Assembly (NCBI GenBank): GCA_945869735.1
Contig: CAMBPQ010000011.1
Location: forward strand, 1,023-65,022
Source of the DNA: Planctomicrobium piriforme
GTDB lineage: Bacteria; Planctomycetota; Planctomycetia; Pirellulales; UBA1268
Reading direction: 5' to 3'
DNA: 64,000 nucleotides
Shown: in pieces, positions 9,785-46,127 of the stretch
Numbering within the stretch: the first letter of the stretch is position 1
Layout: each line of letters opens with the position of its first letter
Notes under the pieces: generated by a model
The model's database searches: none
What the model was told of the DNA's origin: nothing
What the model saw: only the letters and a program-made list of their open reading frames with translations
Made by a program: the position numbers and the translations under genes

Positions 9785-9950
9785 GGTCTTCGTTGGAGGA
9801 GATCCACACGTCTCATGCCGGTGCGTGACCATGACACGTGACGAGAAAAATCCACCGAGCGAAGCCCCCGGTCAACGGCCCCGGCGGGCTGCTTGTGACA
9901 CGACCCACTCCGGCCCGTCGCCGATGAGTAGGTCGGTGAACTCCTTCGCT

Positions 9951-10109
9951 TCGAACGCATTCGACTTCCGTGGATCGCCGGCTCGGGGCGGCAAAATTCT
10001 CGTCGCCGGGGCGAGGATACGCTCCAGGCTCCTCGAGCGTTCGCCGACCCCCTTGCCTCCCTCCTCCAGGCTGCCATCTCGCCGCTCCACCAAAGGCAGA
10101 GGCGGTCTA
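9951..10109 (-). repeat. Family-1 MITE-like repeat, copy A (reverse orientation)
   Basis: Aligns by eye over about 160 bp with 13587-13748 and 50725-50884. Shared cores are gggggtcggcgaacgctcgag and cgacgagaNttttgccgcc. Confidence 0.8.
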
Positions 10110-10157
10110 GTCGGCCGTGCCCTCGAGGTCGAACTCCGTTGCGACCGTGCTGCCGAT

Positions 10158-10672
10158 CTACGATTGCACGAGCCGCGACTCGGCCTGCACGGCGACGTGG
10201 GTGGTCACTTCGCTGGCGAAGTTGACGAGGTCGTAGACCCGGCACTTCACGGGCCATAGCCGCTGGCGGCGAACCGGGAGCGTGTCGAGGTCGGTCAGGC
10301 CGTAGAACTCTTGAATTCGGCCGGTCAGTCGGTCGAAATCCTTGAGTGCCCGGATCTTGTGGGCCGGATCGATCGCCTTCGTCTTCACGAGCTGACGGGA
10401 AAGCCCGTGCGCCTCGCGGACCGACGCTCACGACGACTACGATGCCAGGAGCCGCTCACCGATCGCCGTGAAGCCGTCGGCATGGTCGAAGCCCTCGATG
10501 GCGCGTGTGCCGGGGGTTCTTGCTCGCCGGGACCAAGAGATGTTTTGCGGACAAGCAAGCAGCGCCTTCGCAGCGGCCCGGGAAAGCTCTTCTTTCGCGC
10601 CCAACTCGACATCACGATGTGGACGAAGCTCGTGCAGATCGAGCGTGTCCGAGAGGACAGGGAGATCCGTCT
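10158..10672 (-). pseudogene. Decayed ORF fragments in two minus-strand frames (unidentified gene remnant)
   Basis: Hand translation gives two fragments. The first is DRQTDLPVLSDTLDLHELRPHRDVELGAKEELSRAAAKALLACPQNISWSRRARTPGTRAIEGFDHADGFTAIGERLLAS*. The second, in a different frame, is ASVREAHGLSRQLVKTKAIDPAHKIRALKDFDRLTGRIQEFYGLTDLDTLPVRRQRLWPVKCRVYDLVNFASEVTTHVAVQAESRLVQS*. Both look protein-like, but the first has no convincing start and I recognise no family. Confidence 0.3.
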
Positions 10673-11984: not shown

Positions 11985-13337
11985 CTACTTGATATTCAGC
12001 GCTTCTTCGCCCGCTTGGGCAATGCGTTCGATGACCGCGATCATTTCGTCTTGGCTTGGATGGGGCGATAATCCGGTCGCGGCGGGAGTCGCCGGGTCGA
12101 GCCGCAGCCGGTGTGGCAGTTCGATGCCCGGGTTTTGCCAGAGTTTTGCAAGCCGCGAGGGACTCACGTTGCCGAGCCCCTTGAGCGATAGCGATCCGCC
12201 TGCATGGGAGGCGAGGATATCTGCGACTCGGTCGGTCACGCTCGTGATGCCATCGAGGGTCAGAAGCGGATGCCTCACAAGTTCACGGGCTGTCTCCTCG
12301 GTGAGAGCCGTGATGCCGTTCAACGAGAGTTCTCCTGCTCGGTGTGTCGCCAGGATCGCGGCCACCGGCGGCGTGACGTGCTCGATATTGTTCACAAAAA
12401 GTCCGGAGAGGCCGGGGATGCCCCGTGGACCCTGCTGACTCGCGAGGATCGCAGCAGTGCGTTGATCCAGCGTTGTGAGTCCGCCGAGTAAAAGTGGCCC
12501 GACATGCTGGATGAGCGACGCGAGGTGGTGGTCGCGGATGCCGCTTGGCGGCGAGAGCGAGAGGGATCCTTCGTGCTGGCCGAGGGAGTGCACAACGGCA
12601 TCGGTGATCTCGACGGCATTGAGATAGAGCGGACCTCGATGCTTCGAGAGAAGGTGCGCCTCGGTCGGCGAAAGCGACTTGAGCCCGCGGAGGCAGAGAT
12701 GCCCTGTCCGGCTGCCGAGTGCGTGGGCGGCGGCTTCCTTCAGATGCGTGAGCCGGTGGAGGTGCAGCTTGCCGAAATGCCTTGCAAGGTGCGTCGCCAC
12801 CTCGTCGGGCAGCCAAGCCAGCCCCTCGAGAAACAGATCGCCGCGCTGGCACGACAGGGCGGCTGCGGCACTCGGCGACAGGTGCTTCAAGCCCCACAGG
12901 TAAAGCTCGTTGTCGTGCTGCGCCAGGCCGAGGGCGGCTTTGTCATTGAGGTTCTGGATGCGTTTGAGTGAGAGTTCGCCATCGTGACGGCCCAGCGACC
13001 AGGCGGCTGAGTCGGAGAGCCTTCGGAGGTTGTTGAGCGAGAGCCCGCCGCCTGTGTGCTTCCCGAGTTCGGCAGCGACGGCATCGGTGACGGTCGTCAG
13101 CGTATCGAGATAGAGGTGCCCTCGATGCTGCGCGAGTTGTCGGGCCACGGAGAGCGGGAGGCGGATGACCTCATGCAGGTAGAGATGCGTGGCATAGTGG
13201 CCGATGATACCTTCGGCTGCGTCGCCGGGTGATCGCTCGAGTGAGGCCTCTCCGTAGGTCGCGGCCACGACCGGGTCGAGAGCGTCGTTCGCAAGCGTCG
13301 GCCCCGTCGCCGGAATGGGCCGGCGAAACAGGGCCAC
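11985..13337 (-). CDS. Leucine-rich-repeat-like protein, about 15 tandem 23-residue repeats
   Basis: Visible periodicity with consensus xLxLxGLxxLsxxaAxxLaxHxG, for example ELSLKRIQNLNDKAALGLAQHDN, ELYLWGLKHLSPSAAAALSCQRG and DLFLEGLAWLPDEVATHLARHFG. Confidence 0.7.
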   Translation of the reverse strand: MALFRRPIPATGPTLANDALDPVVAATYGEASLERSPGDAAEGIIGHYATHLYLHEVIRLPLSVARQLAQHRGHLYLDTLTTVTDAVAAELGKHTGGGLSLNNLRRLSDSAAWSLGRHDGELSLKRIQNLNDKAALGLAQHDNELYLWGLKHLSPSAAAALSCQRGDLFLEGLAWLPDEVATHLARHFGKLHLHRLTHLKEAAAHALGSRTGHLCLRGLKSLSPTEAHLLSKHRGPLYLNAVEITDAVVHSLGQHEGSLSLSPPSGIRDHHLASLIQHVGPLLLGGLTTLDQRTAAILASQQGPRGIPGLSGLFVNNIEHVTPPVAAILATHRAGELSLNGITALTEETARELVRHPLLTLDGITSVTDRVADILASHAGGSLSLKGLGNVSPSRLAKLWQNPGIELPHRLRLDPATPAATGLSPHPSQDEMIAVIERIAQAGEEALNIK

Positions 13338-33878: not shown

Positions 33879-34289
33879 ATGGTCATGCTCACCAGCACCT
33901 ACGCAGGCGGCCTCCGCTGCCAGGCCGTCCACGGCCCGTCGGGGGCCACGCTCTTCACCGACGCGCCGGTCGACAACCACGGCAAGGGGGAGAGTTTTTC
34001 GCCCACCGACCTCGTGGCCACGGCGCTCGGGGCCTGCATGATGACGATCATGGGGATCGTGGCCGAGCGGCATGGGCTGAACCTCACTGGCATGAAGGCC
34101 GAGACGGTCAAGGAAATGACGAAGGAGCCGCCGCGGCGGATCGCGTCGCTCCGCACGCGGCTCACGATCCCCCTGTCGGCCGACCACCCGCAGCGGGAAC
34201 TGCTCGAACAGGCCGCCCACACCTGCCCGGTGCACAAGAGCCTTCATCCCGACATCGACGCCGCGATCGAGTTTGTCTGGGCCGGCTAA
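33879..34289 (+). CDS. OsmC family protein
   Basis: GESFSPTDLVATALGACMMT and EQAAHTCPVHKSL give the two conserved Cys motifs. Confidence 0.8.
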   Translation: MVMLTSTYAGGLRCQAVHGPSGATLFTDAPVDNHGKGESFSPTDLVATALGACMMTIMGIVAERHGLNLTGMKAETVKEMTKEPPRRIASLRTRLTIPLSADHPQRELLEQAAHTCPVHKSLHPDIDAAIEFVWAG

Positions 34290-34311
34290 CGGCATCCAAT
34301 CGGAGGCAGGC

Positions 34312-35640
34312 ATGCCCGACCTCTTCGCCGCATCTCGGGCCGCCAACGTGGCCCGCGCCGCGCCGCTCGCGGCCCGGATGCGGCCCCGGCGGCTCGCCGA
34401 CTACGTGGGCCAGCAGAAGATCGTGGGCCAGGGCACGCTCCTGCGGCGGCTCATCGAGGCCGACCGGCTGGGATCGGTGATCCTCTACGGGCCGCCCGGC
34501 GTGGGGAAGACGACGCTTGCGGAGATCATTGCCCACGAGACGAAGCGGCGATTCGTCGAACTCTCCGCGACGGCCGCGGGTGTGAAGGATGTGCGTGACG
34601 TGCTGGAGGTCGCACGGCGGCGACTGGAGGACGACGGCCAGCGGACATGCCTGTTCATCGATGAGATCCACCGGTTCAACAAGGCCCAGCAGGACGTGCT
34701 CCTGCCCGACGTCGAGAACGGCGTGATCGCACTCATCGGTGCGACCACGCAGAATCCCTTCTTCGCGCTTACCAGCGCGCTCGTCAGTCGCAGTCGGATT
34801 TTCGAGCTCGAGAGCCTCGCCATCGACGACGTCGGCGCAATCCTCGACCGGGCCGTCGCCGATCGAGAACACGGCCTCGGGGGTGAGCAGGTGACGCTTA
34901 CATCCGAGGCCCGGGCGTTTCTCGTGGAGACGTCCGACGGCGATGCCCGGCGGGCGCTCGGGGCGCTCGAGGTCGGCGTGCTGTCGAGCACGTCGCGGCC
35001 GCTTGAGTTCACGCTCGCGCTCGCCCGCGAGAGCGTCCAGCGGAAGGCCATCGCCTATGACTCGGGCGACACCCACTACGACTGCGCCAGCGCCCTCATC
35101 AAGAGCATCAGGGGCAGCGACGCCGATGCGGGGCTCTACTGGCTCGCGCGGATGCTCGAGGGGGGCGAGGACGTGCGGTTTCTATCCCGCCGTCTCGTGA
35201 TTCTCGCCAGTGAAGACGTCGGTAACGCCGATCCCCGGGCCCTGATGATCGCGGTTGCCGCCATGCAGGCGACCGAGTTTGTGGGGCTGCCCGAGTGCCA
35301 GCTCACGCTTGCCCAGGCCGTGATCTACCTTGCGCTCGCTCCCAAGAGCAACGCCTGCACGACCGCGATCGGTGCGGCCCGTCGCGACGTCCGTGAGCAG
35401 GCGGTGATCCCCGTGCCCCGGCATCTGCAGGACAAGCATTACTCCGGCGCGAAGCGTCTCGGCCACGGCCAGGGCTACGAGTATTCCCACGACGCGGTCG
35501 ACGGGATCGCCTCGCAGGATTACCTCGGTGTCGAGAAGACCTACTACGAGCCGACCGACCGCGGGATGGAGCGGGATCTTGCCGAGCGATTGGCCGAGAT
35601 CAGGCGGCGACTCCGGCAGGAGCAGCCGGAACACTCCTGA
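34312..35640 (+). CDS. rarA: Replication-associated recombination protein A
   Basis: LAARMRPRRLADYVGQ, ILYGPPGVGKTTLA, LFIDEIHRFNKAQQD, GDARRALGALE and KSIRGSDADAGLYWLARM. Confidence 0.9.
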   Translation: MPDLFAASRAANVARAAPLAARMRPRRLADYVGQQKIVGQGTLLRRLIEADRLGSVILYGPPGVGKTTLAEIIAHETKRRFVELSATAAGVKDVRDVLEVARRRLEDDGQRTCLFIDEIHRFNKAQQDVLLPDVENGVIALIGATTQNPFFALTSALVSRSRIFELESLAIDDVGAILDRAVADREHGLGGEQVTLTSEARAFLVETSDGDARRALGALEVGVLSSTSRPLEFTLALARESVQRKAIAYDSGDTHYDCASALIKSIRGSDADAGLYWLARMLEGGEDVRFLSRRLVILASEDVGNADPRALMIAVAAMQATEFVGLPECQLTLAQAVIYLALAPKSNACTTAIGAARRDVREQAVIPVPRHLQDKHYSGAKRLGHGQGYEYSHDAVDGIASQDYLGVEKTYYEPTDRGMERDLAERLAEIRRRLRQEQPEHS

Positions 35641-36418
35641 GCTCGGTGACAATCTCGTTGGTGAGCACCTCCTCGAGGCGGGCGAGAGCCCGGGCCACGG
35701 CGGCCCCGTCGAGCACGCGATGGTCGGCGATCGCAGTGACGAGGCAGCGGCCGTCGGCGTCGAGCGGTCCATAAGACAGGCTCGTGGTGCAGAGCGTGGG
35801 ATGAAAACGGTTGGTGACACCGAAGCCGGCGAGCGTGGAGAGACTGAAGGTGCCGACCCGCGTGGCCCGCTTGGGCGAGGCCGACCGCATGTTCCAGCGG
35901 AGGATCACGCGGCGAAGCCCGCCGGGCAACGCCTCGAGTTGCAGTTGCCGTTTGAACACCCGTTCGGTCGGCTCGGTCGCGAAGCGGTCGATCGCCGCCT
36001 GGAGAAGCGGCAGAGGCGTGTCGTCGGGGCGGACGAGCCGGGCGAAGAACAATCGGTCGGCCTCCTCGTCAGTTCGGTTGATGGTGAGCACGGCCACGCT
36101 GTGGGAACTCGTGGCGATGCGCCGCACGATCCGGCCGGCGAGCCAGCTGCGGAGAACGGGCACCTCCCGCGCGACGATCCCATAGCCCTTGAGGAAGATC
36201 GCGGCCCAGCCGATCCGCTCAGCCGCTGCTGACCGAGCCGCCGCCACGTCAGCAAGCTGCATTTCCCGATCGACGGGAAAGAGCGGGATGGTCTTCGCGA
36301 GCTCCGCGATATCGATGACGCAGCCGCGGCCGACGGCGAGCGGCGCCGTGGTGACGGTGATCGGATGCGGTGAAGGGTGACTCATGGAGGGGCTGCCTGG
36401 GATGCGGGATTGAAGCAA
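35600..36418 (-). CDS. Acyltransferase with a 2-oxoacid-dehydrogenase E2 / CAT-like catalytic domain
   Basis: The C-terminal motif [17 protein letters not shown] is of DHRxxDG type. The start is uncertain (36418 or 36385). The 3' end overlaps rarA convergently by 41 nt. Confidence 0.55.
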
Positions 36419-36504: not shown

Positions 36505-36957
36505 ATGCGAGCCGTGATCCAGAGGGTGTCGGAAGCGAGCGTGGCGATCGCCGGTGAGGTGGTGGCACGGATCGGGACCGGCCTGCTCGTGCTGGTGGGC
36601 GTAGAGACTGGCGACTCCACCGAAGACGCCCACTGGCTGGCCGGGAAGATCGCGCAGTTACGGATTTTCGCTGATGACACCAGCAAGATGAATCTCAGCG
36701 TCGTTGAGGCCGACGGTGGCATGCTCGTGGTCAGCCAGTTCACGCTCGTCGCGGCCACGGCCAAGGGCAACCGGCCGAGTTTCATCCGGGCGGCGCGGCC
36801 CGAGGAGGCGGTGCCGCTCTACGAGTTGTTTCTCGCCGCGCTCGAGCCGCTCGTGGGGCAACGGCCGGAGCGGGGCGTGTTTGCCGCCGACATGCGGGTG
36901 GCACTCGTCAACGACGGCCCGGTGACGATCGTGATTGACTCGCGGCGGCGGGAGTGA
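36505..36957 (+). CDS. dtd: D-aminoacyl-tRNA deacylase
   Basis: [30 protein letters not shown] and GNRPSF. Confidence 0.9.
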
Positions 36958-37081
36958 CGGTTGCCGGCCGGGGGCCGGCCAAGCGGGCGGTTGCTGCGGA
37001 AACATGCGGCAATCGACCCCCGTAGCGCCGCTGTCGGGGGGCCTGAAATCCGATCGCCGTGTGGTACACTTTCGCCCGCAT

Positions 37082-37156
37082 GGTGGTTGTAGCTCAGTTG
37101 GTTAGAGCATCGGTTTGTGGTACCGAGGGTCGCGGGTTCGAGTCCCGTCAGCCACC
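37082..37156 (+). tRNA. tRNA-His (anticodon GTG) with genomically encoded G-1
   Basis: Hand-folded cloverleaf: G-1 + GTGGTTG / TA / GCTC-AGTTGGTTA-GAGC / TCGGT-TTGTGGT-ACCGA / GCGGG-TTCGAGT-CCCGT / CAGCCAC + C. No CCA is encoded. Confidence 0.9.
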
Positions 37157-37198
37157 CTGAATTCTTTTCATTCGGCACTCACAGCGGAGACAGTTGCC

Positions 37199-37948
37199 AT
37201 GATTCTCGGCAAGCTCTGGAAGGCGCTCGCGGCCCAGATGAACAAGGTCGCCAACTTCTTTTGGACGGCCGACCCGATCGCCCAACTGCAGTACGAATAC
37301 GACAAGGCCGTCGACCAGATGAAGGAAGGCCGCGAGGGGCTCGAGCAGTATCGGGCGCTCGTGGAGCGGGTCACGCGGCAGGTCAACGGCGACCAGCAGC
37401 ACGTGGCCCAGCTGGAGGCGCGGATCAAGGCCTACCTCCAGGCTGGCGAGCGGGAGACTGCCTCAAAGTTTGCCCTGGAACTGCAGGCCGCGAAGAAGCA
37501 GCTGGCCGAGAACGAGGGCCAGCTCAAAATGCACGAGACCGCCTACACCAATAACGTCACCAAGATCAAGCACGCCACGAAGAAGCTGTCGGATCTCAAG
37601 ACCAAGATTCAGAAGTACGACGCCGACCTCAAGCTCTCGCGGGCCGAGGCCGAACTTGCCAAGCTCGCGCATAGTTTCAACTTCGACGTTACGACCGACT
37701 TTGGCCAGATTGAGGACGTGATCCAGGACAAGATCGGGCTCAACCGGGCCAAGGTCCGCGTCGCCGCTGATCTCTCGGGCGAGGGCCTCGAAGACATCAA
37801 GCGCGAGGAGGCCGTCGAGAAGACGATGGCCGACAATGCCCTCCGCGAGTTCGAGATCGAGATGGGGATGGTCACGCCCGAGACCGCCGGCGTGAAGGCG
37901 GACGACAAGGAACTCGGATCCGAGCGGATCACGCAGAAGACGACTTGA
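37199..37948 (+). CDS. pspA: PspA/IM30 family protein (bacterial ESCRT-III superfamily)
   Basis: MILGKLWKALAAQMNKVANFFWTADPIAQLQYEYDKAVDQMKEGREGLEQYRALVERV... is followed by continuous coiled-coil heptads, as is typical of PspA_IM30. Confidence 0.85.
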   Translation: MILGKLWKALAAQMNKVANFFWTADPIAQLQYEYDKAVDQMKEGREGLEQYRALVERVTRQVNGDQQHVAQLEARIKAYLQAGERETASKFALELQAAKKQLAENEGQLKMHETAYTNNVTKIKHATKKLSDLKTKIQKYDADLKLSRAEAELAKLAHSFNFDVTTDFGQIEDVIQDKIGLNRAKVRVAADLSGEGLEDIKREEAVEKTMADNALREFEIEMGMVTPETAGVKADDKELGSERITQKTT

Positions 37949-37988
37949 GCGAGCGTCGCGACGCGTTGAGCCACCGTAGGAGCCGATC

Positions 37989-39866
37989 GTGAGCACTCCC
38001 TCTGCATCCACCGATATGCCCCGGTCGCCGGCGGCCGCCGGGACCTCCCCGCCGGCCGCGACGGGTCTCGGCACCGGGGCGGCGACGGGAGGATCCGTCG
38101 CCTTGCCGGAATGGTGTCCGTCGTGGGCGGAGCGGCTTGGCGATGCGTATCTCTCCGGCACGAGCTGCGTTTTTCTCCTGCACGGCAACGTCCGCGACCT
38201 GGTGCCGATCACCGCGCCTGCGGCGGCCGGTCAGGCCGATACCGCCGCCTGGGGAACGGTGCCCGACTTCCTCGCCCGTGAGATGTTTGGCCGCTGGGAC
38301 ATCGTGCTGGCCTACGACGTGGGGAAGGGTCTGCGGCCGCTCGCGGGCCCCGATCCTGCCCGACTCCGAACGATGGCCCAGTGGCTGACGGAACGGCTAG
38401 GCAACGCCGCCACCTGGCCGCGTGATCCCGATCAGGCCATCGCCGCGATCGACGGGATTCTGGAGCGGAATCTGATCGATCCGCCGGAACAGCGAAAGCG
38501 GATCGCCGTCGTGCTCGACTACGCACAGTATCTCGTGCCCGCGAGCGAGGCGGGCGGCCGCTCGGGGGCTGCGCGGATGGTGCGGATTCTCGGCTGGGCG
38601 ACCAACCCGTTGCTCCGTCGCGTCAACGTCGCGATCGCGCTGCTCACCGACTCGCTCGCCGAGATGCATCCGCGGTTGGCTGCCAATCCGGCCGTGACTG
38701 CGATCGAGGTGCCGATGCCGGAGGCCGAAGAGCGGGAGCGGTTTGCGCTGACGACAGCCGCTGCGGCAGGCATGCCAGCGGAGCAACTTGACGGCGTGCG
38801 GCGGGTTGCCGCGCTCTCCGGCGGCCTCACGCTCGAGAGCCTGCGGGCCGTGGTCGCGCTTTCGGCTCGCGAGCGCACGGCCCCCGACGGACCCGAGTTT
38901 ACCGCCCGCAAGAAGGACTTGATCGAGCGGTCGTGCCAGGGCCTGATCGAGTTCATCCAGCCGCGGCTGACCCTCGACGCCGTGGCTGGCCATGCCGCGG
39001 CGAAAAACCGCCTCGAGTCCGATGCACGGGCGATCAAGCGTGGCCAGTTCGAAAGCGCCCCGATGGGCTATCTCATCTGTGGTCCTGTCGGCACCGGCAA
39101 GAGCTTCATCGCCGAGTGTTATGCCGGCAGCGTTGGGATTCCCTGCGTGGTGCTCAAGAACTTCCGCAGCAAATACGTGGGCGAGACGGAGGGCAATCTG
39201 GAGCATGCCCTCGGCGTGCTGCGGAGCCTCGGCCCGGTTGTGGTCGTCATCGATGAGGCCGACGCGGCGCTCGGCAACCGCCAGAGCGACGGTGATTCCG
39301 GCACCTCGGCGCGAGTGTTCTCGATGATCGCCCGGCAGATGGGCGACACGCGGTATCGCGGCAAGATTGTCTGGATGCTGCTCACGAGCCGTCCCGACCT
39401 GCTCCCGATCGACCTCAAGCGGCAGGGCCGTGCGGAGGTGCACATCCCACTCTTCTATCCTCACGACCAAGCGGAGATGGAGGCGATGTTCGCGGCGATG
39501 GCAAGGAAGTGCCATGTGAAGCTCGCCCCCGGCCTGCCGGGACCGATCGACCTCTCGCTCGGCCTGTCCGGCGCCGACGTTGAGAGCCTGGTGCTCGCCG
39601 CCCGCCGCCAGAGCCTCGACCGGGCGGCCGACGCCGGCCAGCCCACCCCCAACACGATCTCGCCGGACGATCTTGCGGCCGCGCTTGACAACTTCATGCC
39701 CAGCGCCCAGGGTCTCGAGAAGGAGATGCAGGAAGTGGCCGCGGTGCTTGAATGCACCGAGAAGCGGTTCCTTCCCGAACACTGGCAGGAGACGGTAGGC
39801 CAGCCCGGTGGCCGGTCCCGCCTCCAGGAGAGGCTCGCGGCGATCCGCGACGTCATTGGTTCCTGA
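37989..39866 (+). CDS. Classic-clade AAA+ ATPase with a long N-terminal region resembling a degenerate AAA domain
   Basis: Walker A ICGPVGTGKSF, SKYVGETEGNLEHAL, Walker B VVVIDEADAAL, and second region of homology LLTSRPDLLPIDLKRQGRAEVHIPL. The N-terminal half has VFLLHGNVRD where a P-loop would sit, and AVVLDYAQYL. Confidence 0.8.
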   Translation: MSTPSASTDMPRSPAAAGTSPPAATGLGTGAATGGSVALPEWCPSWAERLGDAYLSGTSCVFLLHGNVRDLVPITAPAAAGQADTAAWGTVPDFLAREMFGRWDIVLAYDVGKGLRPLAGPDPARLRTMAQWLTERLGNAATWPRDPDQAIAAIDGILERNLIDPPEQRKRIAVVLDYAQYLVPASEAGGRSGAARMVRILGWATNPLLRRVNVAIALLTDSLAEMHPRLAANPAVTAIEVPMPEAEERERFALTTAAAAGMPAEQLDGVRRVAALSGGLTLESLRAVVALSARERTAPDGPEFTARKKDLIERSCQGLIEFIQPRLTLDAVAGHAAAKNRLESDARAIKRGQFESAPMGYLICGPVGTGKSFIAECYAGSVGIPCVVLKNFRSKYVGETEGNLEHALGVLRSLGPVVVVIDEADAALGNRQSDGDSGTSARVFSMIARQMGDTRYRGKIVWMLLTSRPDLLPIDLKRQGRAEVHIPLFYPHDQAEMEAMFAAMARKCHVKLAPGLPGPIDLSLGLSGADVESLVLAARRQSLDRAADAGQPTPNTISPDDLAAALDNFMPSAQGLEKEMQEVAAVLECTEKRFLPEHWQETVGQPGGRSRLQERLAAIRDVIGS

Positions 39867-39898
39867 TTCATCGCACGCACCCACAGGAGATTTTCCAC

Positions 39899-40192
39899 AT
39901 GGCCGCCACGACCCCGTGGTTTGAAGACTCGAGTGAGACCCCGCTGATTGCTGAGTATGCCCGCAAGCTCGACTCGTTTCTCGACGCGATCGCCGACTCG
40001 GTCGTCGAAACGAAGGAGCTTGCCGAGCAGGAGAAGCGGGTGGTGACGCTGATGAAGGAGGTCGAGCCGCTGCTCTCGCCGGAGGCCCACGAAAAAGTCA
40101 CCCGGCTGCTTTGTGAGGTGACGGCCTACGATCTCATGCACGCCCTGCACATGGCCGGTCTCGCGCGTCCGAAGACGAAGTTTCGCGGCTGA
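39899..40192 (+). CDS. Small predicted all-helical protein (97 aa), hypothetical
   Basis: The ATG is preceded by AGGAG 9 nt upstream. MAATTPWFEDSSETPLIAEYARKLDSFLDAIADSVVETKELAEQEKRVVTLMKEVEPLL... It is tightly spaced with its neighbours. Confidence 0.55.
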   Translation: MAATTPWFEDSSETPLIAEYARKLDSFLDAIADSVVETKELAEQEKRVVTLMKEVEPLLSPEAHEKVTRLLCEVTAYDLMHALHMAGLARPKTKFRG

Positions 40193-40212
40193 TCTTTCTC
40201 CCGAGGTGAAAT

Positions 40213-41958
40213 ATGTCCACTCAACCCAAGGCTCCCTTCTGGCTCGCAGTGTGGGCCGTCATCTTCGGGCTCGTCGGCCTCGCCGCGTGGCGGGCGGGGA
40301 TGCTCGAGCAGTTTGGGATCGCCCGCCCGGGGGCTGCCGGTCAGCGGCCGGTCGCCGGCGGTGGCGCGGCTGCCGGCGGTGATGCTGAGACCATGAGCGA
40401 GGCCCCCGATGTGGCGGTGCCCACAACCGTCAAGGAATACACATTCAAGCCGGCCGAGAAGCTGCCCCCGGTGAAGGGCGTGAGCGGCTACAAACCGCTC
40501 GAGGACAACACCGTACGTTTCGCCCTCAATGTCTGGGCGGGCTGGGCGCCGATCATCAGGGCCAACGGCGGGTTCAAGCCGGGAAAGGTCTGGCAGTCAC
40601 CGGGTGGTAAGCCCTTCAAGGTGGAGCTCGTCCTGATCGACGACCCGGTGCAGATGCGCGACGCCTACGCCGCCGGCAACGTCCACATTGGCTGGGCGAC
40701 TCTCGACATGCTGCCGCTGTTCGTCGACAGCTTCGCCAAGGACTCGCGGATCATGCCCCGCGTCTATCAGCAGGTCGACTTCTCCAACGGCGGCGACGGG
40801 ATCGTCGTCCGCGAGTCGATCAAGACGGTCAAGGATCTGGCGGGAAAGAAGCTCGTGATGGCGCAGAACTCGCCCAGCCAGTTCTTCGCCCTCAATATGC
40901 TCGTGGCCGGCGGCCTGCAGCCGGCTGATGTCGAGATGATCTACGTCAACACCGCCTTCGAGGCCGCTGCGGCGTTCAATCGTGACAAGAGCATCGCCGG
41001 CTGCGTGTCGTGGGCCCCCGACATCTACAACTTGGCCGATGCCAAGGGCAACCGGATGCTCGTCACCACGCAGACGGCCAACCGTCTGATCGCCGACGTC
41101 TGGTTTGCTCGGGCAGACTTTGCCAAGGATCACCCCGACATGATCGAGGCCATCGCGAGGGGTATCTTCGACGGGATGGCGGAACTCAAGAGCGAGTCGG
41201 CGCGGAAGGAGGTGGCGGAGTTGATGGCCGACGGCTACACGATTCCGGCGGCCGACGCGCTCTCGATGCTTGGCGACGCCCATAGCACCAACTGGGCGGA
41301 GAACTATCAGTTCTTCCTCAACCGCAACAACCCGGCCAACTTCGAGCGGATCTGGAAGCAGGCCTACATGCTCTACCGCCGCATCGGAGCGATCGCCAAT
41401 AACCCGGTGCCCTTCGACCAGGTGATGGATTTTTCGGTGATCCAGAAACTTGGCCGCGAGCCCACGTACGCGGAGACGAAGGACGAGTACGCCAGCACAC
41501 TGTCGCCGAAAACGGTGCAGCAGATTCGTGCCGAGAACGAGGAGATTCTCACCAACACGATCGTGATCCACTTCTTTCCCAATAGCGCCGAGTTGCGGAA
41601 GAAGGTGATCCGGCGGATCGAAGGCAAGGACGTCGAGGAGCCGTACGACGCTCGGGTCGACCTCGTGATCGATGAGGCAGGAGTGCTTGCCAAGCAGTTT
41701 GGCAACGCACGGATCGTCGTCGAGGGGCACACCGATAGTTCGATGCGGGGAGCCGTACCGGCCGCGATGGTGCGGGAACTCTCGCTCGAGAGGGCCCGCT
41801 CCGTGAAGGATGCGCTGGTAGAGAAGTTCAAGTTTGACGACGGCCGCTTCGCCGTCGACGGGCTGGGCTGGGATCAGCCTGCCGATGACGACCATCCCGA
41901 CAACCACGCACTCAACCGCCGCGTGGAGATCAAGGTCTACGCAGCGGAAAAGGAATGA
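40213..41958 (+). CDS. ABC-transporter substrate-binding (NMT1/SsuA-like) protein fused to a C-terminal OmpA-like domain
   Basis: N-terminal TM/signal anchor FWLAVWAVIFGLVGLAAW and a periplasmic-binding-like middle. The C-terminal RIVVEGHTDS...LSLERARSVKDALV...NRRVEIKV is the OmpA_C motif. Confidence 0.75.
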   Translation: MSTQPKAPFWLAVWAVIFGLVGLAAWRAGMLEQFGIARPGAAGQRPVAGGGAAAGGDAETMSEAPDVAVPTTVKEYTFKPAEKLPPVKGVSGYKPLEDNTVRFALNVWAGWAPIIRANGGFKPGKVWQSPGGKPFKVELVLIDDPVQMRDAYAAGNVHIGWATLDMLPLFVDSFAKDSRIMPRVYQQVDFSNGGDGIVVRESIKTVKDLAGKKLVMAQNSPSQFFALNMLVAGGLQPADVEMIYVNTAFEAAAAFNRDKSIAGCVSWAPDIYNLADAKGNRMLVTTQTANRLIADVWFARADFAKDHPDMIEAIARGIFDGMAELKSESARKEVAELMADGYTIPAADALSMLGDAHSTNWAENYQFFLNRNNPANFERIWKQAYMLYRRIGAIANNPVPFDQVMDFSVIQKLGREPTYAETKDEYASTLSPKTVQQIRAENEEILTNTIVIHFFPNSAELRKKVIRRIEGKDVEEPYDARVDLVIDEAGVLAKQFGNARIVVEGHTDSSMRGAVPAAMVRELSLERARSVKDALVEKFKFDDGRFAVDGLGWDQPADDDHPDNHALNRRVEIKVYAAEKE

Positions 41959-42878
41959 CCACGACTCCTGTACCGTTCGCTCCGCCGAGCCCGCCACCCG
42001 CGGTGGCGGTCCAACCGTTGCGGGGCGAGGTATCTGCGGCGACGGCGGTGTTCTGGGGTGTGACCTGCATCGCGGCGGTGCTTGCCCTGTGGTTCATCGC
42101 CACCGCCGGCGAGGCAGAGATGCGGTTCATCAGCCCGGCCACGCTGCCGAGCCCCGGCGAAACGGTGTCGGCGATTCCCGATGTGTTCGGGCAGCGGCGG
42201 CTCGTCGCCAACACGCTCGTGACGCTCGGCCGCGTCTGCCTCGGATTTGGCCTGAGCGGCCTGATCGGCGTACCGCTGGGTGTGGTCGCCGCCTGCTTCC
42301 CGGCGGTGCGGTCGTTCGTGGCACCGCTTACGATCTTCGGCCGCAACATCCCCGTCGCGGCGCTCATCCCGCTGACGTTCTTCTTCTTCGGGATCGGGGA
42401 GTTCCAGAAGGTGATGTTCCTATTCATCGCGAGCGTGGCCTTCGTCATTAGCGACACGACGGCCGCCGTGCTCGAGGTGCCGCAGCGGTACGTCGATACC
42501 GCGCTGACGCTCGGTGCCTCACGGCTGCAGATCATCCTGAAAGTGCTCGTGCCCCTGGCGGCCCCGGCGATCTTCAACTCGCTGCGGCTGCTCTTTGGCA
42601 TTGCCTTCGGCTACGTGATGCTCGCCGAGGTGGTGAAACTCGGGGGAGACACCGGCGGCCTCGGCGACCTGATCAATGTGTCGCAGCGGCGGGGTGAGCG
42701 GGAGCCGATCCTGATCGTGCTCGTTGTGATCCCACTGGTCGCCTACACGATCGACCGGCTACTCTGGTGGCTGCAGTGCGATCTCTTTCCGCACCGCTAT
42801 GGCGGCCGGGGCTTGCTGCCTCGGTTGTTTCGAAGCCTCCTGCACGGGGCGGCGGGGTCCGCCGAGGCTGCGGCATGA
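41955..42878 (+). CDS. ABC transporter permease (NitT/TauT-type)
   Basis: Multi-TM protein with the EAA-like loop TALTLGASRLQIILKVLVPLAAP. It shares 4-nt overlaps with both neighbours. Confidence 0.85.
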   Translation: MTTTPVPFAPPSPPPAVAVQPLRGEVSAATAVFWGVTCIAAVLALWFIATAGEAEMRFISPATLPSPGETVSAIPDVFGQRRLVANTLVTLGRVCLGFGLSGLIGVPLGVVAACFPAVRSFVAPLTIFGRNIPVAALIPLTFFFFGIGEFQKVMFLFIASVAFVISDTTAAVLEVPQRYVDTALTLGASRLQIILKVLVPLAAPAIFNSLRLLFGIAFGYVMLAEVVKLGGDTGGLGDLINVSQRRGEREPILIVLVVIPLVAYTIDRLLWWLQCDLFPHRYGGRGLLPRLFRSLLHGAAGSAEAAA

Positions 42879-43771
42879 GCGACGTGGTGCCCCCGACGAT
42901 TCCCGCTTCACTGCTAACGGCTGCCGATCGGCCGGCAGTGGTCGAGTTCCTCGGCGTGACGAAGATTTATGGCCAGGGCAACCCGCGCGAGTACGTGGCA
43001 ATCTCGGACGTGACCTTCACGATTCCCGACGTGGTGGATCACGGCGAGATTTCGTCGTTCCTGGGGCCGAGTGGCTGCGGCAAGAGCACGGTGCTCAGGC
43101 TCGTTGCCGGCCTCGAACCGCAGCATTCGCCGACGAGCGGCACGGTGACGGTGCTTGGCCGGCCGGTCGTCGGGCCTGGCGCCGACAGGGGCATGGTGTT
43201 TCAGGACTACACGAGCTTCGACAACCGCACGGTGCTCGATAACGTGGTCTTCGGGCTGGAGTGCCGCGGTGTGCCCCGGCGGGAGCGGGAGGCTGAAGGG
43301 CTCGACTGGATCGCGAAAGTTGGCCTCGATCCGAAGAGGGATGCGACGAAATACCCACATGAACTCTCGGGCGGCATGCGGCAGCGGGTGGCCATCGCCC
43401 GCACGCTCATCCTGCGACCGCGGGTGATCCTTATGGACGAACCCTTCGGGGCACTCGATCCGGCGACGCGGCTCGACATGCAGGATCTCCTGATCCGACT
43501 CTGGCGGGAGGTACAGGCGACCGTGCTGTTCGTGACGCACTCCGTCGAGGAAGCCGTGTATCTCGGCGACCGCGTGTTTGTGATGGCCACGACCCCGGGC
43601 CGAATCGTCGATGAGATTCGGCTGCCCGCGCCGACCCGGCCGGCTCGCGAGATCCAGTCGGAGCCCTGGTTTCACGAGCAGGTCAACGCCCTGCATGCCC
43701 GGATCGAGCAGGTTGAGGCCGCCGCGAAGCGTCCCGAAAACGGTGCTAGGCACCAAATCCAGGCCGGATAG
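42875..43771 (+). CDS. ABC transporter ATP-binding protein
   Basis: GPSGCGKST, LSGGMRQRVAIARTL, ILMDEPFGALD and VTHSVEEA. ATGA start/stop overlap with the permease. Confidence 0.9.
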   Translation: MSDVVPPTIPASLLTAADRPAVVEFLGVTKIYGQGNPREYVAISDVTFTIPDVVDHGEISSFLGPSGCGKSTVLRLVAGLEPQHSPTSGTVTVLGRPVVGPGADRGMVFQDYTSFDNRTVLDNVVFGLECRGVPRREREAEGLDWIAKVGLDPKRDATKYPHELSGGMRQRVAIARTLILRPRVILMDEPFGALDPATRLDMQDLLIRLWREVQATVLFVTHSVEEAVYLGDRVFVMATTPGRIVDEIRLPAPTRPAREIQSEPWFHEQVNALHARIEQVEAAAKRPENGARHQIQAG

Positions 43772-43800
43772 GCAGTTCGTAGCCCACACTCCCCCAGATT

Positions 43801-43820
43801 CGGTGCCAGGCACCGTTTTT
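43801..43820 (+). terminator. Candidate intrinsic terminator or attenuator hairpin plus T5
   Basis: cggtgccaggcaccg is followed by ttttt, and the next ATG is only 2 nt further on. A near-identical hairpin, cggtgctaggcacc, occurs 60 nt upstream inside the CDS. Confidence 0.35.
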
Positions 43821-43822
43821 CT

Positions 43823-44665
43823 ATGTTCAGCCGATTTAGCTCGTATGTGAAGACCGCGTTTACGACGCGATGGAATCTACTGCTCTTCGGCGGCGGCGTG
43901 GTCGCGGCGTTCATCAGCGGCTTTCCCGGTATCCTGCTGCCGTTGGTGGTTGCCAGCGAGGTCTACTACCTGGCGAGCATGCTTGCCAACGACCGCTTTC
44001 GCAGCGCTGTTGAGGCGCAGGATGCGAAGTCGCGGCGGGCCGTGGAGGCGTCAGGGGCCCGCGAGGCGTACGAACGAATCCGGAAGAATCTCCCGCCGCC
44101 ACTGCTCAAGCGATTCGATCAGCTTCGGGATCATTGCCTCAAACTCGTCGAACTCGGCGGCAGCATGCGGGGGCCGGACGGCGGCGGCCCCGACACCAAC
44201 GCTTTGGAGTCGCTCGACCGCCTGCTCTGGGGCTACCTGCGGATGATCTGGGGGGCGTCCACGCTTTCCGACTTCCTCAACCACACCGACGACGCCGCGA
44301 TCCGGGCGCGGATCGCCGACCTCGAGCGACGGCTGGCGAAACTTCCCGGAGGTGATCCGGGCTCCGCGCAGATGCGGGCCGCCCTCGAGGATCACCTGAA
44401 GACAAGCCGCGAGCGGCTCGACAATATCGAGGAGGCCCGCCGGAAGCTCGACCTCGTGTCCGCCGAGGTCGAGCGGCTCGAGGCCAAGATCGCCGCGCTC
44501 GCCGAGAGCTCGGTCGCGAAGCGGGACGTCAGCGACATCGCGAAGCGGGTCGACGAGGTGGCCGAGGGGATGCGGAAGACCGACGAGACGATGCGGCAGC
44601 TCCAGCTTCCGCCGGAGCTCGAAGACCTCGACGAGGCCCCGCCGATGCTCCGCGAGGAGGCGTAG
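43823..44665 (+). CDS. Membrane-anchored coiled-coil protein, hypothetical
   Basis: Two N-terminal hydrophobic helices (WNLLLFGGGVVAAFISGFPGILLPLVVASEVYYLA), then long E/R/L/A heptad-like stretches. Confidence 0.6.
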   Translation: MFSRFSSYVKTAFTTRWNLLLFGGGVVAAFISGFPGILLPLVVASEVYYLASMLANDRFRSAVEAQDAKSRRAVEASGAREAYERIRKNLPPPLLKRFDQLRDHCLKLVELGGSMRGPDGGGPDTNALESLDRLLWGYLRMIWGASTLSDFLNHTDDAAIRARIADLERRLAKLPGGDPGSAQMRAALEDHLKTSRERLDNIEEARRKLDLVSAEVERLEAKIAALAESSVAKRDVSDIAKRVDEVAEGMRKTDETMRQLQLPPELEDLDEAPPMLREEA

Positions 44666-44695
44666 AGAGCGGCTGCGGGCTCGTGTGGCGGGGCT

Positions 44696-44824
44696 CGGGG
44701 CTGCCCGTGCCCGTCGCCGGACGCTCGCTGCGGGCATCCTGCCCTTCGCTCGCTGCGCGGCGGCTGCGCTTCGCCATCCTGGCTTCGCTGGCCGCCGAGC
44801 CCGGCTCCCGGGCACGGGCAGCCC
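44696..44824. repeat. 17-bp perfect inverted repeat (ggggctgcccgtgcccg / cgggcacgggcagcccc) with a 95-nt spacer
   Basis: The arms at 44696-44712 and 44808-44824 were read directly. The spacer contains degenerate direct repeats (catcctgSCttcgct). Confidence 0.8.
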
Positions 44825-44984
44825 CTCGCTAGGGGCGAGAGGACGGTGGTGTTTCGCGTGTCGCCGCCGGGATGGCGGCGAGTCAGGCGCGGCGAACCTT
44901 GGCTTCGCCCCGCCTGACCCAAGCGCTGGCTTCAGACGGGCGTCCGCCCGTCGTGGCGGCAGGATGCCTGTGTTTCGCGTGTAT

Positions 44985-46127
44985 TCAGTCCAGCCAGTCG
45001 GCTTCTTCGAGCCGTTCGGGGGTGTACGTGTCGGTGACGTAGCTGATGTCCTTCGAGATCAGCGACTCGACCTCGAGCTTGAAGCCGTTGGCGAGCATCA
45101 TCTCGATCTCTTTCTGCCACGCCTTCTTGCCGGCGAACCAGGGATAGGCGGCAATCTGTTTCGCCCGCTTGATGTCGGTGTCGTTGAGCTGGATCTGGAC
45201 GCTCGGGGAGAGTTTGCACCGCTGATAGTCGCGGGAACGGATGCCAAGGAACTTGGCCTCGGGGATCGCCATTCGCTTCGATTCGTAGGCCAGGTTGATC
45301 GAGCCCTGCTTGAGCACCGAGTAGATGTAGTAGCCCCAGGGATCGTTGTCGAGCAGACAGTAGACGGGCAACTTCAGCTCATTGTGGAGTCGGTGAAGCA
45401 TTCGCCGCACGCCCCGCGGCGGCTGGCCACCGCCATGGGTGAGCAGACAGTTGTGTTTCCGCCAGAACTTATCCTCGTTGAACCGCCGCCAGACCGTGTC
45501 TTTCTCGACGTGGAGAATGAACGTGGCGTCACAAGTCTTAAACTTCACCACATCGGCCTCGACGATCGAGGGTATCGAGTAGCCGCCGGAGCCCATCCGA
45601 GAGCAGTCGATCTCGTCGCCCGAGTCGATGAGCGTGATCGGGCCGACCATGCCGCCGCGGTTACTCGCATAGACGTGGAGTTCTTCGCGGAGGCTCTCCA
45701 GCGTGACCTCGAGGTCCTCAATGATCGGGTCGCACTCCTCCTGCGCGGTGAAGGTCTCCTCGCGGGTGCCCTCGATCGTGTGCTTGAGGAGGTAGTAAAG
45801 ACCTCGGATACTCGTGGTCTTCTGCTGGTCGAGCAATTGCTTGCAACCGGTGGCCACAAGCAGGGTCTGCATGTAGCTCTTGGCCTGCGAGAGATTGAAG
45901 AGCTGACGGCGGTTTGTCTGGCCGCCCATCTCGATGATTTTCTGCGACTTGTTAAAGCGGACATTCGAGAGGCTGCGGGTGGGGATGTCGAGGAAGGGAT
46001 CGCGGCGCTTCTCGGCGGCGGCCGCGACCTCGTCGGCGAGGCCCTCGATCAGCTTGAGCGTCTTGATGTCGACCGCAGGCAGTTTGCCGGCGGCGGCCTT
46101 CGCGGCGCGTTTCGACTTCGTGGCCAT
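44985..46127 (-). CDS. DNA topoisomerase VI subunit A / Spo11-like protein
   Basis: SIRGLYYLLKH is the region of the catalytic Tyr in the winged helix. The Toprim domain shows ILHVEKDTVW (Glu), LLTHGGGQPPRGVRRML and VYCLLDNDPWGYYIYSV (DxD). Downstream are GSINLAYES and EAKFLGIRSRD. The 380-aa length is typical of Top6A. Confidence 0.85.
   Translation of the reverse strand: MATKSKRAAKAAAGKLPAVDIKTLKLIEGLADEVAAAAEKRRDPFLDIPTRSLSNVRFNKSQKIIEMGGQTNRRQLFNLSQAKSYMQTLLVATGCKQLLDQQKTTSIRGLYYLLKHTIEGTREETFTAQEECDPIIEDLEVTLESLREELHVYASNRGGMVGPITLIDSGDEIDCSRMGSGGYSIPSIVEADVVKFKTCDATFILHVEKDTVWRRFNEDKFWRKHNCLLTHGGGQPPRGVRRMLHRLHNELKLPVYCLLDNDPWGYYIYSVLKQGSINLAYESKRMAIPEAKFLGIRSRDYQRCKLSPSVQIQLNDTDIKRAKQIAAYPWFAGKKAWQKEIEMMLANGFKLEVESLISKDISYVTDTYTPERLEEADWLD

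Follow-up and report, generated by a model that had tools for sequence, protein, structure and literature searches.

A PspA gene and a tandem AAA+ ATPase gene in one operon

The window analysed here is a stretch of 64,000 nucleotides (nt) from contig CAMBPQ010000011.1 of the Planctomicrobium piriforme assembly GCA_945869735.1 (Planctomycetota). It contains a gene for a PspA/IM30 protein, followed directly by genes for an AAA+ ATPase of 625 amino acids (aa) and for a small protein of 97 aa; in what follows, p97 alone denotes this small protein and p97/Cdc48 the type-II AAA unfoldase. Structural work since 2021 has assigned both PspA and Vipp1 to the ESCRT-III superfamily, and the initial annotation of this stretch had read the three genes as a possible Vps4-like remodelling module. 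We found that a functional link between the ATPase and PspA is very well supported, and on balance we lean towards an ATP-driven module that remodels or disassembles the PspA polymer, Vps4-like in its action but outside the Vps4 family.

The three genes are co-directional and start right after a tRNA-His gene, with intergenic gaps of 40 nt (pspA/ATPase) and 32 nt (ATPase/p97), as initially annotated; the gene boundaries agree with those called publicly for metagenome contigs of identical sequence. An AGGAG motif stands 8-9 nt 5' of the start codons of both the ATPase and p97 genes, the latter being the ribosome-binding site already noted for the 97-aa gene, and GGAGA lies 5' of pspA. While the trio itself is real, the unit does not end with it: it heads an operon of seven genes (37199-44665), which continues with an ABC importer, including a binding protein fused to an OmpA-like domain, and with a 280-aa protein that we refer to as p280 (Table 1). 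From p97 through p280 the gaps are 20, -4, -4 and 51 nt, the permease gene overlapping each of its neighbours by 4 nt.

Table 1. Features of the pspA-ATPase operon in the window, with positions counted from the first nucleotide of the window
Feature	Position	Strand	Protein residues	Evidence
tRNA-His(GTG)	37083-37157	+
pspA: PspA/IM30 (ESCRT-III superfamily), 249 aa	37199-37948	+		Pfam PF04012
AAA+ ATPase, 625 aa, GTG start	37989-39866	+		Pfam AAA, AlphaFold2, Foldseek
ATPase D1, degenerate AAA domain	38106-38942	+	aa 40-318	hhalign, column counts
ATPase D2, active classic AAA domain	38943-39698	+	aa 319-570	Pfam AAA, column counts
C-terminal helical extension of ATPase	39699-39866	+	aa 571-625	family alignment, AlphaFold2
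p97: conserved small protein, 97 aa	39899-40192	+		495 homologues, synteny
Solute-binding protein (NMT1/SsuA-like) with C-terminal OmpA-like domain, 581 aa	40213-41958	+		Pfam
ABC importer permease (BPD_transp_1; NitT/TauT-like), 307 aa	41955-42878	+
ABC transporter ATP-binding subunit (taurine/nitrate/sulfonate-like; TauB/NtrCD-like), 298 aa	42875-43771	+
GC-rich hairpin (CGGTGCC-AGG-CACCG), then TTTTT	43801-43815	+
p280: helical protein with two transmembrane segments, 280 aa	43823-44665	+		636 homologues, operon conservation

Judged by its Pfam match, the first gene encodes a bona fide PspA/IM30 protein, in line with the initial assignment: PF04012 (PspA_IM30) covers aa 1-179 (profile positions 1-178 of 220) and reaches 50.5 bits, well over its gathering cutoff of 33.9. 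Matches to solved Vipp1 and PspA chains in a PDB sequence search were weak (E 0.0016-0.2). The PspAs encoded in operons of another ATPase subfamily scored 69-73 bits with the same Pfam model at three loci. The window protein has an amphipathic N-terminal segment, MILGKLWKALAAQMNKVANFFW, and a conserved C-terminal tail, ALREFEIEMGMVTPETAG...KELGS (also given as ...GMVTPETAG...KELG). Among PspAs linked to an AAA gene this tail follows the consensus A-L-x-x-F-x-x-[EQ]-[LM]-G-[LM]-x-x-P, a short linker and [KR]-[DE]-L-G-P, and the motif is retained at overall identities of 18-28%. We propose the tail as a candidate site at which the ATPase engages PspA.

The ATPase belongs to a family of 748 representatives (clusters at 50% identity) at E<=1e-30. 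All four motifs quoted in the initial annotation (GPVGTGKS, SKYVGETE, VVVIDEAD and TSRPDLLPIDLKRQGRAEVH) are present in its translation. The Pfam AAA match (PF00004, 74.4 bits) is confined to aa 362-487, within the second of two AAA domains, D1 and D2. The D1 and D2 domains of the family align with each other by hhalign at 92% probability (E 5.9e-7, 127 columns). At the Walker A position D1 reads FLLHGNVRD, the lysine being gone (family pattern [HY]-G-N-[VI]-x-D), and in place of the Walker B DE stands D177-Y178 (family pattern D-[YFH]). D2 has a Walker A of GPVGTGKS (K371), a Walker B at D422-E423, a pore loop 1 formed by K395-Y396-V397-G398, and arginine fingers R478 and R481. K371, D422, E423, G398, R478 and R481 are kept in 52/52 family members and the pore-loop aromatic in 51/52; these (near-)invariant pore-loop, arginine-finger and Walker residues bear out the placement in the classic AAA clade. 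Since D1 has lost its motifs whereas D2 keeps the catalytic and pore residues, the enzyme reads as a dead-D1/live-D2 unfoldase. By its residues, D1 lacks the means for ordinary ATP binding and hydrolysis, and D2, by the same alignment, retains all the elements for hand-over-hand threading of a substrate.

An AlphaFold2 model based on an alignment of 52 diverse family representatives reached a mean predicted local distance difference test score (pLDDT) of 91.3 and a predicted template-modelling score (pTM) of 0.88, with residues 1-34 alone disordered; an earlier run on 33 close homologues (>80% identity) gave a pLDDT of 51 and was discarded. The helices of the C-terminal extension are of high confidence in the model, and the extension carries a family-specific motif, A-x-x-x-E-C-T-x-x-x-F-L-P-E. 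Searched against the PDB with Foldseek, the model matched p97/Cdc48, Rix7/NVL and Afg2/Drg1 over 530-628 columns that span both domains (E ~1e-18). The best PDB sequence matches were Afg2, Cdc48, p97/Cdc48, VAT, NVL/Rix7 and Yme1; Vps4 was not among the best 60, and neither MIT (PF04212) nor Vps4_C (PF09336) was matched by Pfam. Among NCBIfam models CDC48 ranked highest (57.5 bits), followed by PAN (48), CdvC (36.8) and, about level with it, FtsH (35.9), all far under the family cutoffs (802.65 for CDC48, TIGR01243, and 650 for CdvC). With these score ranks and the fold matches serving as a proxy for a phylogeny against Vps4, Cdc48, FtsH, spastin and katanin, the architecture is not that of Vps4 as had been suggested, but a tandem that superposes on p97/Cdc48, Rix7/NVL and Afg2.

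Some family members are longer (P0371, P0373, P0385 and P0390, 818-856 aa) and consist of two dead D1 copies followed by an active D2 (N-N-AAA). They were considered as PspA-ATPase fusions, which was ruled out: the extra N-terminal part is a second dead D1. The one N-N-AAA context examined (P0373, L171:6001-8457) has no PspA nearby.

Conservation of the gene neighbourhood

We scanned one genome per GTDB species and collected 80 loci in which the ATPase is 45-97% identical to that of the window, annotating them with hidden Markov models built from the window proteins. Most belong to Pirellulales, Planctomycetales, Gemmatales, Isosphaerales and Phycisphaerae, with a small number carrying the labels Acidobacteriota, Myxococcota, Bryobacterales or Gemmatimonadales. 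Singulisphaera is among the planctomycetes that have the trio (L077). PspA is encoded directly 5' of the ATPase in 65 of the 74 assessable loci, and p97 directly 3' of it in 73 of 77; at a further five of the 74, p280 is directly 5' of the ATPase and PspA heads the operon. The initial annotation had held that its proposal would fall if the three genes were not syntenic in related genomes, and they clearly are. The arrangement of the trio recurs in ~90% of the 80 species-level loci, which is far beyond chance, and the three genes are co-inherited across Planctomycetota.

The transporter genes and p280 are found 3' of the trio in 24 of 43 planctomycete-type loci and are absent there in 16, three of which have them upstream instead; for this reason we regard PspA-AAA-p97 as the core of the system. 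The other 13 of these 16 have PspA-AAA-p97 with no transporter or p280 gene found nearby. Outside the planctomycetes the order is PspA, solute-binding protein/OmpA, permease, ABC ATPase, p280, AAA, p97. In loci labelled Acidobacteriota, Myxococcota or Armatimonadota the order is changed, and the PspA operon still includes the ATPase gene; one of the p97 family comes after it in those labelled Acidobacteriota and Myxococcota, and on the Armatimonadota-labelled contig a TerB gene lies one gene further on.

A second scan, of metagenomes, was seeded with another ATPase subfamily, ~33% identical to the window enzyme, and gave another 80 loci (L091-L170). Here PspA is directly 5' of the ATPase in 21/61 loci and a p280-like gene in 28/61 (together 49/61), and in 21 of 24 a same-strand PspA gene is no more than 6 kb away. 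Single look-ups of other subfamilies showed a link to PspA for P0435, P0380 and P0464 and to the transporter for P0422.

Two sets of loci stand apart. Eight from the genome scan (L010, L013, L015, L018, L019, L030, L035 and L049) bear the labels Candidatus Kuenenia, Chitinophaga or Deltaproteobacteria, with ATPases 56-82% identical to that of the window; mis-binning or an incorrect taxonomic assignment may lie behind these labels. A distant family member of 602 aa (P0495, L088:7001-8809) is encoded on a contig of short co-directional open reading frames with a DUF6744 gene, which has the look of phage or other mobile DNA.

The small partner, the transporter genes and the flanks

No match to p97 was found in Pfam or NCBIfam, and none of its 495 homologues, of which all the named ones come from planctomycete metagenome-assembled genomes, carries a Pfam domain. 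The family has the motifs W7-F-[DE], F27-x-x-A-x-A-D33-G-x-V-x-x-x-E40, LLCE-x-T-A-Y and a C-terminal RPKTxFRG; W7, F27, D33-G34, E40, H64 and E73 are conserved and LLCE is nearly invariant. In other ATPase subfamilies the slot just 3' of the ATPase, or a position beside it, is taken by a genuine TerB protein (PF05099, 28-47 bits, the gathering score being 24.4). In the metagenome scan, 23 of 69 loci have TerB directly 3' of the ATPase. Locus L084 has one TerB gene at 9912-10325 and a second on the opposite strand ~2.6 kb further (12403-12795, minus), and on the Armatimonadota-labelled contig TerB is at L085:9346-9879, one gene beyond the slot. The gene in between (L085:8629-9222) encodes a 197-aa protein with faint similarity to PspA_IM30 (E 0.063, profile 75-136), which could be a second, divergent PspA-like protein.

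The p97 and TerB genes are clearly equivalent in position. TerB itself was not matched by Pfam in 24 p97 members, nor by p97 in a PDB profile search. By hhalign, p97 and the TerB proteins align at 13-25% probability, confined to the ADGxVxxxE motif, against 0.1-1.9% for negative controls. The signature that they have in common is A-D-G-x-[VI]-x-x-x-E alone, and on sequence their homology is unproven. The small partner PspAA consists of three helices together with a sheet of four strands and forms a dyad with PspA (Popp et al. 2024, PMC11237479). The p97 gene adjoins the 3' side of the ATPase and not PspA, and p97 is probably not PspAA, a view that depends on the helical prediction made in the initial annotation.

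The 581-aa protein matches Pfam NMT1, NMT1_2 and OmpA and has a single hydrophobic segment (aa 6-31); its NCBIfam matches to urea, sulfonate and taurine binding proteins are under cutoff. It is predicted to be a membrane-anchored periplasmic solute-binding protein with a peptidoglycan-binding OmpA-like domain. An SsuA/NMT1-type binding protein, a BPD_transp_1 permease and a TauB/NtrCD-like ATPase together make 40213-43771 a NitT/TauT-type ABC importer; all equivalog scores are under their cutoffs.

The protein p280 has an N-terminal hydrophobic hairpin (~aa 17-55) and then a long helical cytoplasmic part, and none of its 636 homologues has a Pfam domain. Its position and architecture equate it with the protein that Popp et al. 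describe as 'SIG+TM+Snf7'. A relation to Snf7 or PspA was rejected at the level of sequence: among 20 members, Pfam gave no match to Snf7 (PF03357) or PspA at E<=1, a PDB profile search gave none, and two hhalign runs against operon PspAs stayed at a probability <1%. These negatives are compatible with a relation to Snf7/PspA at the level of the fold.

The hairpin ahead of p280 ends 7 nt 5' of its start codon. It could be an internal attenuator, a terminator or a chance match, and might partly uncouple p280 from the genes 5' of it. A scan of 36900-45100 gave no sigma-70-like promoter sites, and terminator-like sites were not more numerous than expected from shuffled sequence. We place the operon end at 44665 because the next gene is on the opposite strand; that gene (44985-46127, minus strand), convergent with the operon end, is topoisomerase VI subunit A/Spo11-like, with TP6A_N, Topo_VI_alpha and Toprim in a public gene call. 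Upstream, three housekeeping genes are unrelated to the operon: an MgsA/WRNIP-type AAA+ protein (34273-35640), a 272-aa open reading frame whose sole match is a C-terminal 2-oxoacid_dh acyltransferase motif (35600-36418, minus strand), and a D-Tyr-tRNA deacylase (36505-36957). The tRNA-His gene was rejected as part of the module, as it is directly 5' of pspA in the closest relatives only (the window, L005 and L026) and is several kb away or not in the locus in other relatives.

Known systems, proposed mechanism and rival explanations

The pairing of PspA with such an ATPase, for which the initial annotation pointed to surveys of the Psp system, is published: in the text and Table S3 of their paper, Popp, Ravi, Aravind, Gennaro et al. 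(mSystems 2024, PMC11237479) describe PspA beside an 'inactive-classical-AAA + classical-AAA' in a long operon with PBPB+OmpA, a permease, an ABC ATPase and a TM+Snf7 protein (whose Snf7 domain they term 'divergent'), and propose ATP-dependent membrane remodelling by analogy to Snf7/Vps4. Their examples are AEY64320.1/AEY64321.1 from Clostridium sp. BNL1100 and OGG56892.1 from Candidatus Handelsmanbacteria. The window operon has the same components, its ATPase falling into their class with two AAA domains in one polypeptide and the N-terminal one inactive, and our functional proposal is the same as theirs, which was reached from independent data. It differs in order, with PspA-AAA-p97 first and the transporter and p280 after, whereas the published order is found in L080-L083, L085 and much of L091-L170 (~21/80 with the full order). 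The gene set is thus already known from computational work. That paper makes no mention of a 97-aa partner or of TerB, and gives no Planctomycetota example of the PspA-tandem-AAA system, no structure model and no motif census. New with respect to it are the p97/TerB partner and the PspA tail motif; further additions are the confident ATPase model, the census of catalytic and pore motifs, the synteny statistics and the variant gene order. Our literature search found no experiments on a classic AAA ATPase partnered with PspA, of which the initial annotation knew none either, and nothing on a link between TerB and PspA.

Four other systems invite comparison. As in ESCRT-III/Vps4 (CdvB/CdvC), a gene for an ESCRT-III-superfamily polymer is followed by an adjoining classic-clade AAA+ gene whose product has an aromatic-hydrophobic-Gly pore loop 1, two arginine fingers and Walker A and B motifs. 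Unlike Vps4/CdvC, the window ATPase has a tandem instead of a single AAA cassette, has neither MIT, the Vps4 beta-domain nor Vps4_C, and scores lower with the CdvC model than with those for CDC48 and PAN, and its operon has the extra ABC transporter genes. Its best structure and sequence matches are p97/Cdc48/VAT, NVL/Rix7 and Afg2/Drg1, with which the stacked AAA domains align throughout, and the pore-loop-2 and inter-subunit signalling (ISS) regions of D2 resemble those of p97/Cdc48 D2. It differs from Cdc48/p97/VAT in having no N-terminal double-psi-barrel domain and in a D1 that has lost Walker A and B, and from the Cdc48 type-II unfoldases in its family-specific ECT...LPE C-terminal extension. 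The proteobacterial PspF-PspA pair likewise couples an AAA+ protein genetically to PspA, but PspF is an NtrC-type enhancer-binding protein with a helix-turn-helix, divergently transcribed and inhibited by PspA, while the window ATPase is of the classic clade and without a DNA-binding domain. In chloroplasts, the chaperones HSP70B-CDJ2-CGE1 drive the assembly and disassembly of VIPP1 with ATP. This too is ATP-driven turnover of a PspA-family polymer, although by unrelated (Hsp70) machinery that is not encoded in a dedicated operon.

In the mechanism towards which we lean, the seven-gene operon would serve envelope maintenance, and its core would be a PspA polymer with a dedicated hexameric AAA+ unfoldase. 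The D2 ring would engage PspA, probably through the conserved flexible C-terminal tail, and pull subunits from membrane-bound PspA assemblies; such extraction would recycle or reshape the polymer, the task that Vps4 performs on ESCRT-III. The dead D1 ring may be a platform for assembly and docking. A role as regulator or adaptor of the ATPase is suggested for p97, which the TerB-domain protein replaces positionally in other subfamilies. For its part, p280 could be a membrane-resident partner or a nucleation site, and the OmpA-anchored ABC importer may couple the system to the periplasmic solute or cell-wall state.

Several points weigh against this mechanism. A direct contact between PspA and the ATPase is something that we infer, and because the ATPase has no MIT domain its substrate recognition must differ from that of Vps4. 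The sensor-1 position of D2, which is N, S, A or C across the family, has changed from Asn to Ser, Ala or Cys in many of them, the window ATPase (S467) among these. Five of the 11 other subfamilies sampled (P0415, P0395, P0373, P0486 and P0495) have no PspA context, so that the ATPase fold is not tied to PspA as such; the link between the two recurs and runs deep without extending to every member of the fold. Finally, PspA binds and inhibits the AAA+ protein PspF, and gene adjacency cannot separate a substrate from a regulator.

It is on this last point that the nearest alternative turns, namely that PspA is a regulator or adaptor which gates the AAA+ ring according to the membrane state while the ATPase acts on other clients, such as damaged membrane proteins or transporter subunits. 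The inhibition of PspF is exerted on its AAA+ domain (PMC7619361), several operon membrane proteins could be clients, and the subfamilies without PspA would fit as well. We nevertheless consider this alternative unlikely: PspF is of a different AAA+ clade, that of enhancer-binding proteins with a DNA-binding domain, the ATPase holds a complete unfoldase threading apparatus, and a conserved flexible tail such as that of PspA is typical of a threading entry site. Moreover, in archaea and eukaryotes the classic-clade partners of ESCRT-III-superfamily proteins target the polymer itself. The main client might instead be p280, possibly an ESCRT-III-like polymer, or a PspA/p280 co-polymer, and not PspA alone. 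This would suit the gene orders with p280 directly 5' of the ATPase (5/74 genome loci and 28/61 loci of the soil-metagenome subfamily) and the classification of the equivalent protein as a divergent, transmembrane-anchored Snf7 by Popp et al. We rate it as quite improbable, as similarity to Snf7 or PspA was not detected in p280 by Pfam, PDB profile search or hhalign, and as the 13 planctomycete-type loci with PspA-AAA-p97 and no p280 found nearby make PspA-AAA the core.

The two remaining explanations separate the ATPase from PspA altogether. An anti-phage defence or other conflict system with the AAA ATPase as its effector could account for a weak similarity to the anti-phage ATPases IetA/IteA (37 bits in PADLOC, 32.6 bits in NCBIfam), for the distant family member on a phage-like contig and for the presence of TerB, since TerB proteins are found in stress and conflict loci. 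The IetA/IteA similarity is restricted to the generic AAA core, though, and no partner protein matches a defence model, PADLOC giving generic AAA, ABC and MotB similarities only. The stable housekeeping neighbourhood (dtd, mgsA, tRNA-His) and vertical conservation at 80-97% identity in many genomes make the locus unlike mobile defence islands, and a defence role is accordingly very hard to credit. That the ATPase is a general housekeeping chaperone which happens to lie beside pspA is a chance we put at next to nothing: the adjacency is kept in ~90% of the species-level loci and, despite rearranged gene order, in the ~33%-identity subfamily, and the synteny counts effectively refute a coincidence.

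A 2025 review judged a Vps4-like ATPase to be apparently absent in bacteria (PMC7619361), structural work leaves the factor that disassembles PspA rods in the cell open (PMC11746142), and Makarova et al. (2024) restrict Vps4-containing ESCRT systems to archaea and eukaryotes, with Cdc48 as the source of Vps4. A far-reaching and distinctly speculative extension, which we think very unlikely, is that the PspA-AAA pairing shares its ancestry with ESCRT-III/Vps4 instead of imitating it late in bacteria: a Cdc48-like tandem AAA protein would have partnered a PspA/ESCRT-III ancestor before bacteria and archaea split, Vps4 being derived by the loss of one AAA domain. If it were true, ESCRT-III with a dedicated unfoldase would be a universal membrane-remodelling unit as old as the last universal common ancestor, and p97/TerB a hitherto unrecognised regulatory subunit of that unit.

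Planctomycetes are known for elaborate membrane invaginations. In this operon they have a specific candidate, very well conserved, for the missing bacterial PspA-disassembly activity, one that supplies catalytic residues to mutate, a candidate PspA recognition tail and two candidate accessory proteins. Should PspA instead regulate the ATPase, the PspA-PspF principle would extend to a new class of AAA+ machine. If the ATPase remodels PspA, bacterial ESCRT-III biology would gain an energy-consuming step, and the view that Vps4 was invented by archaea alone would need rethinking.

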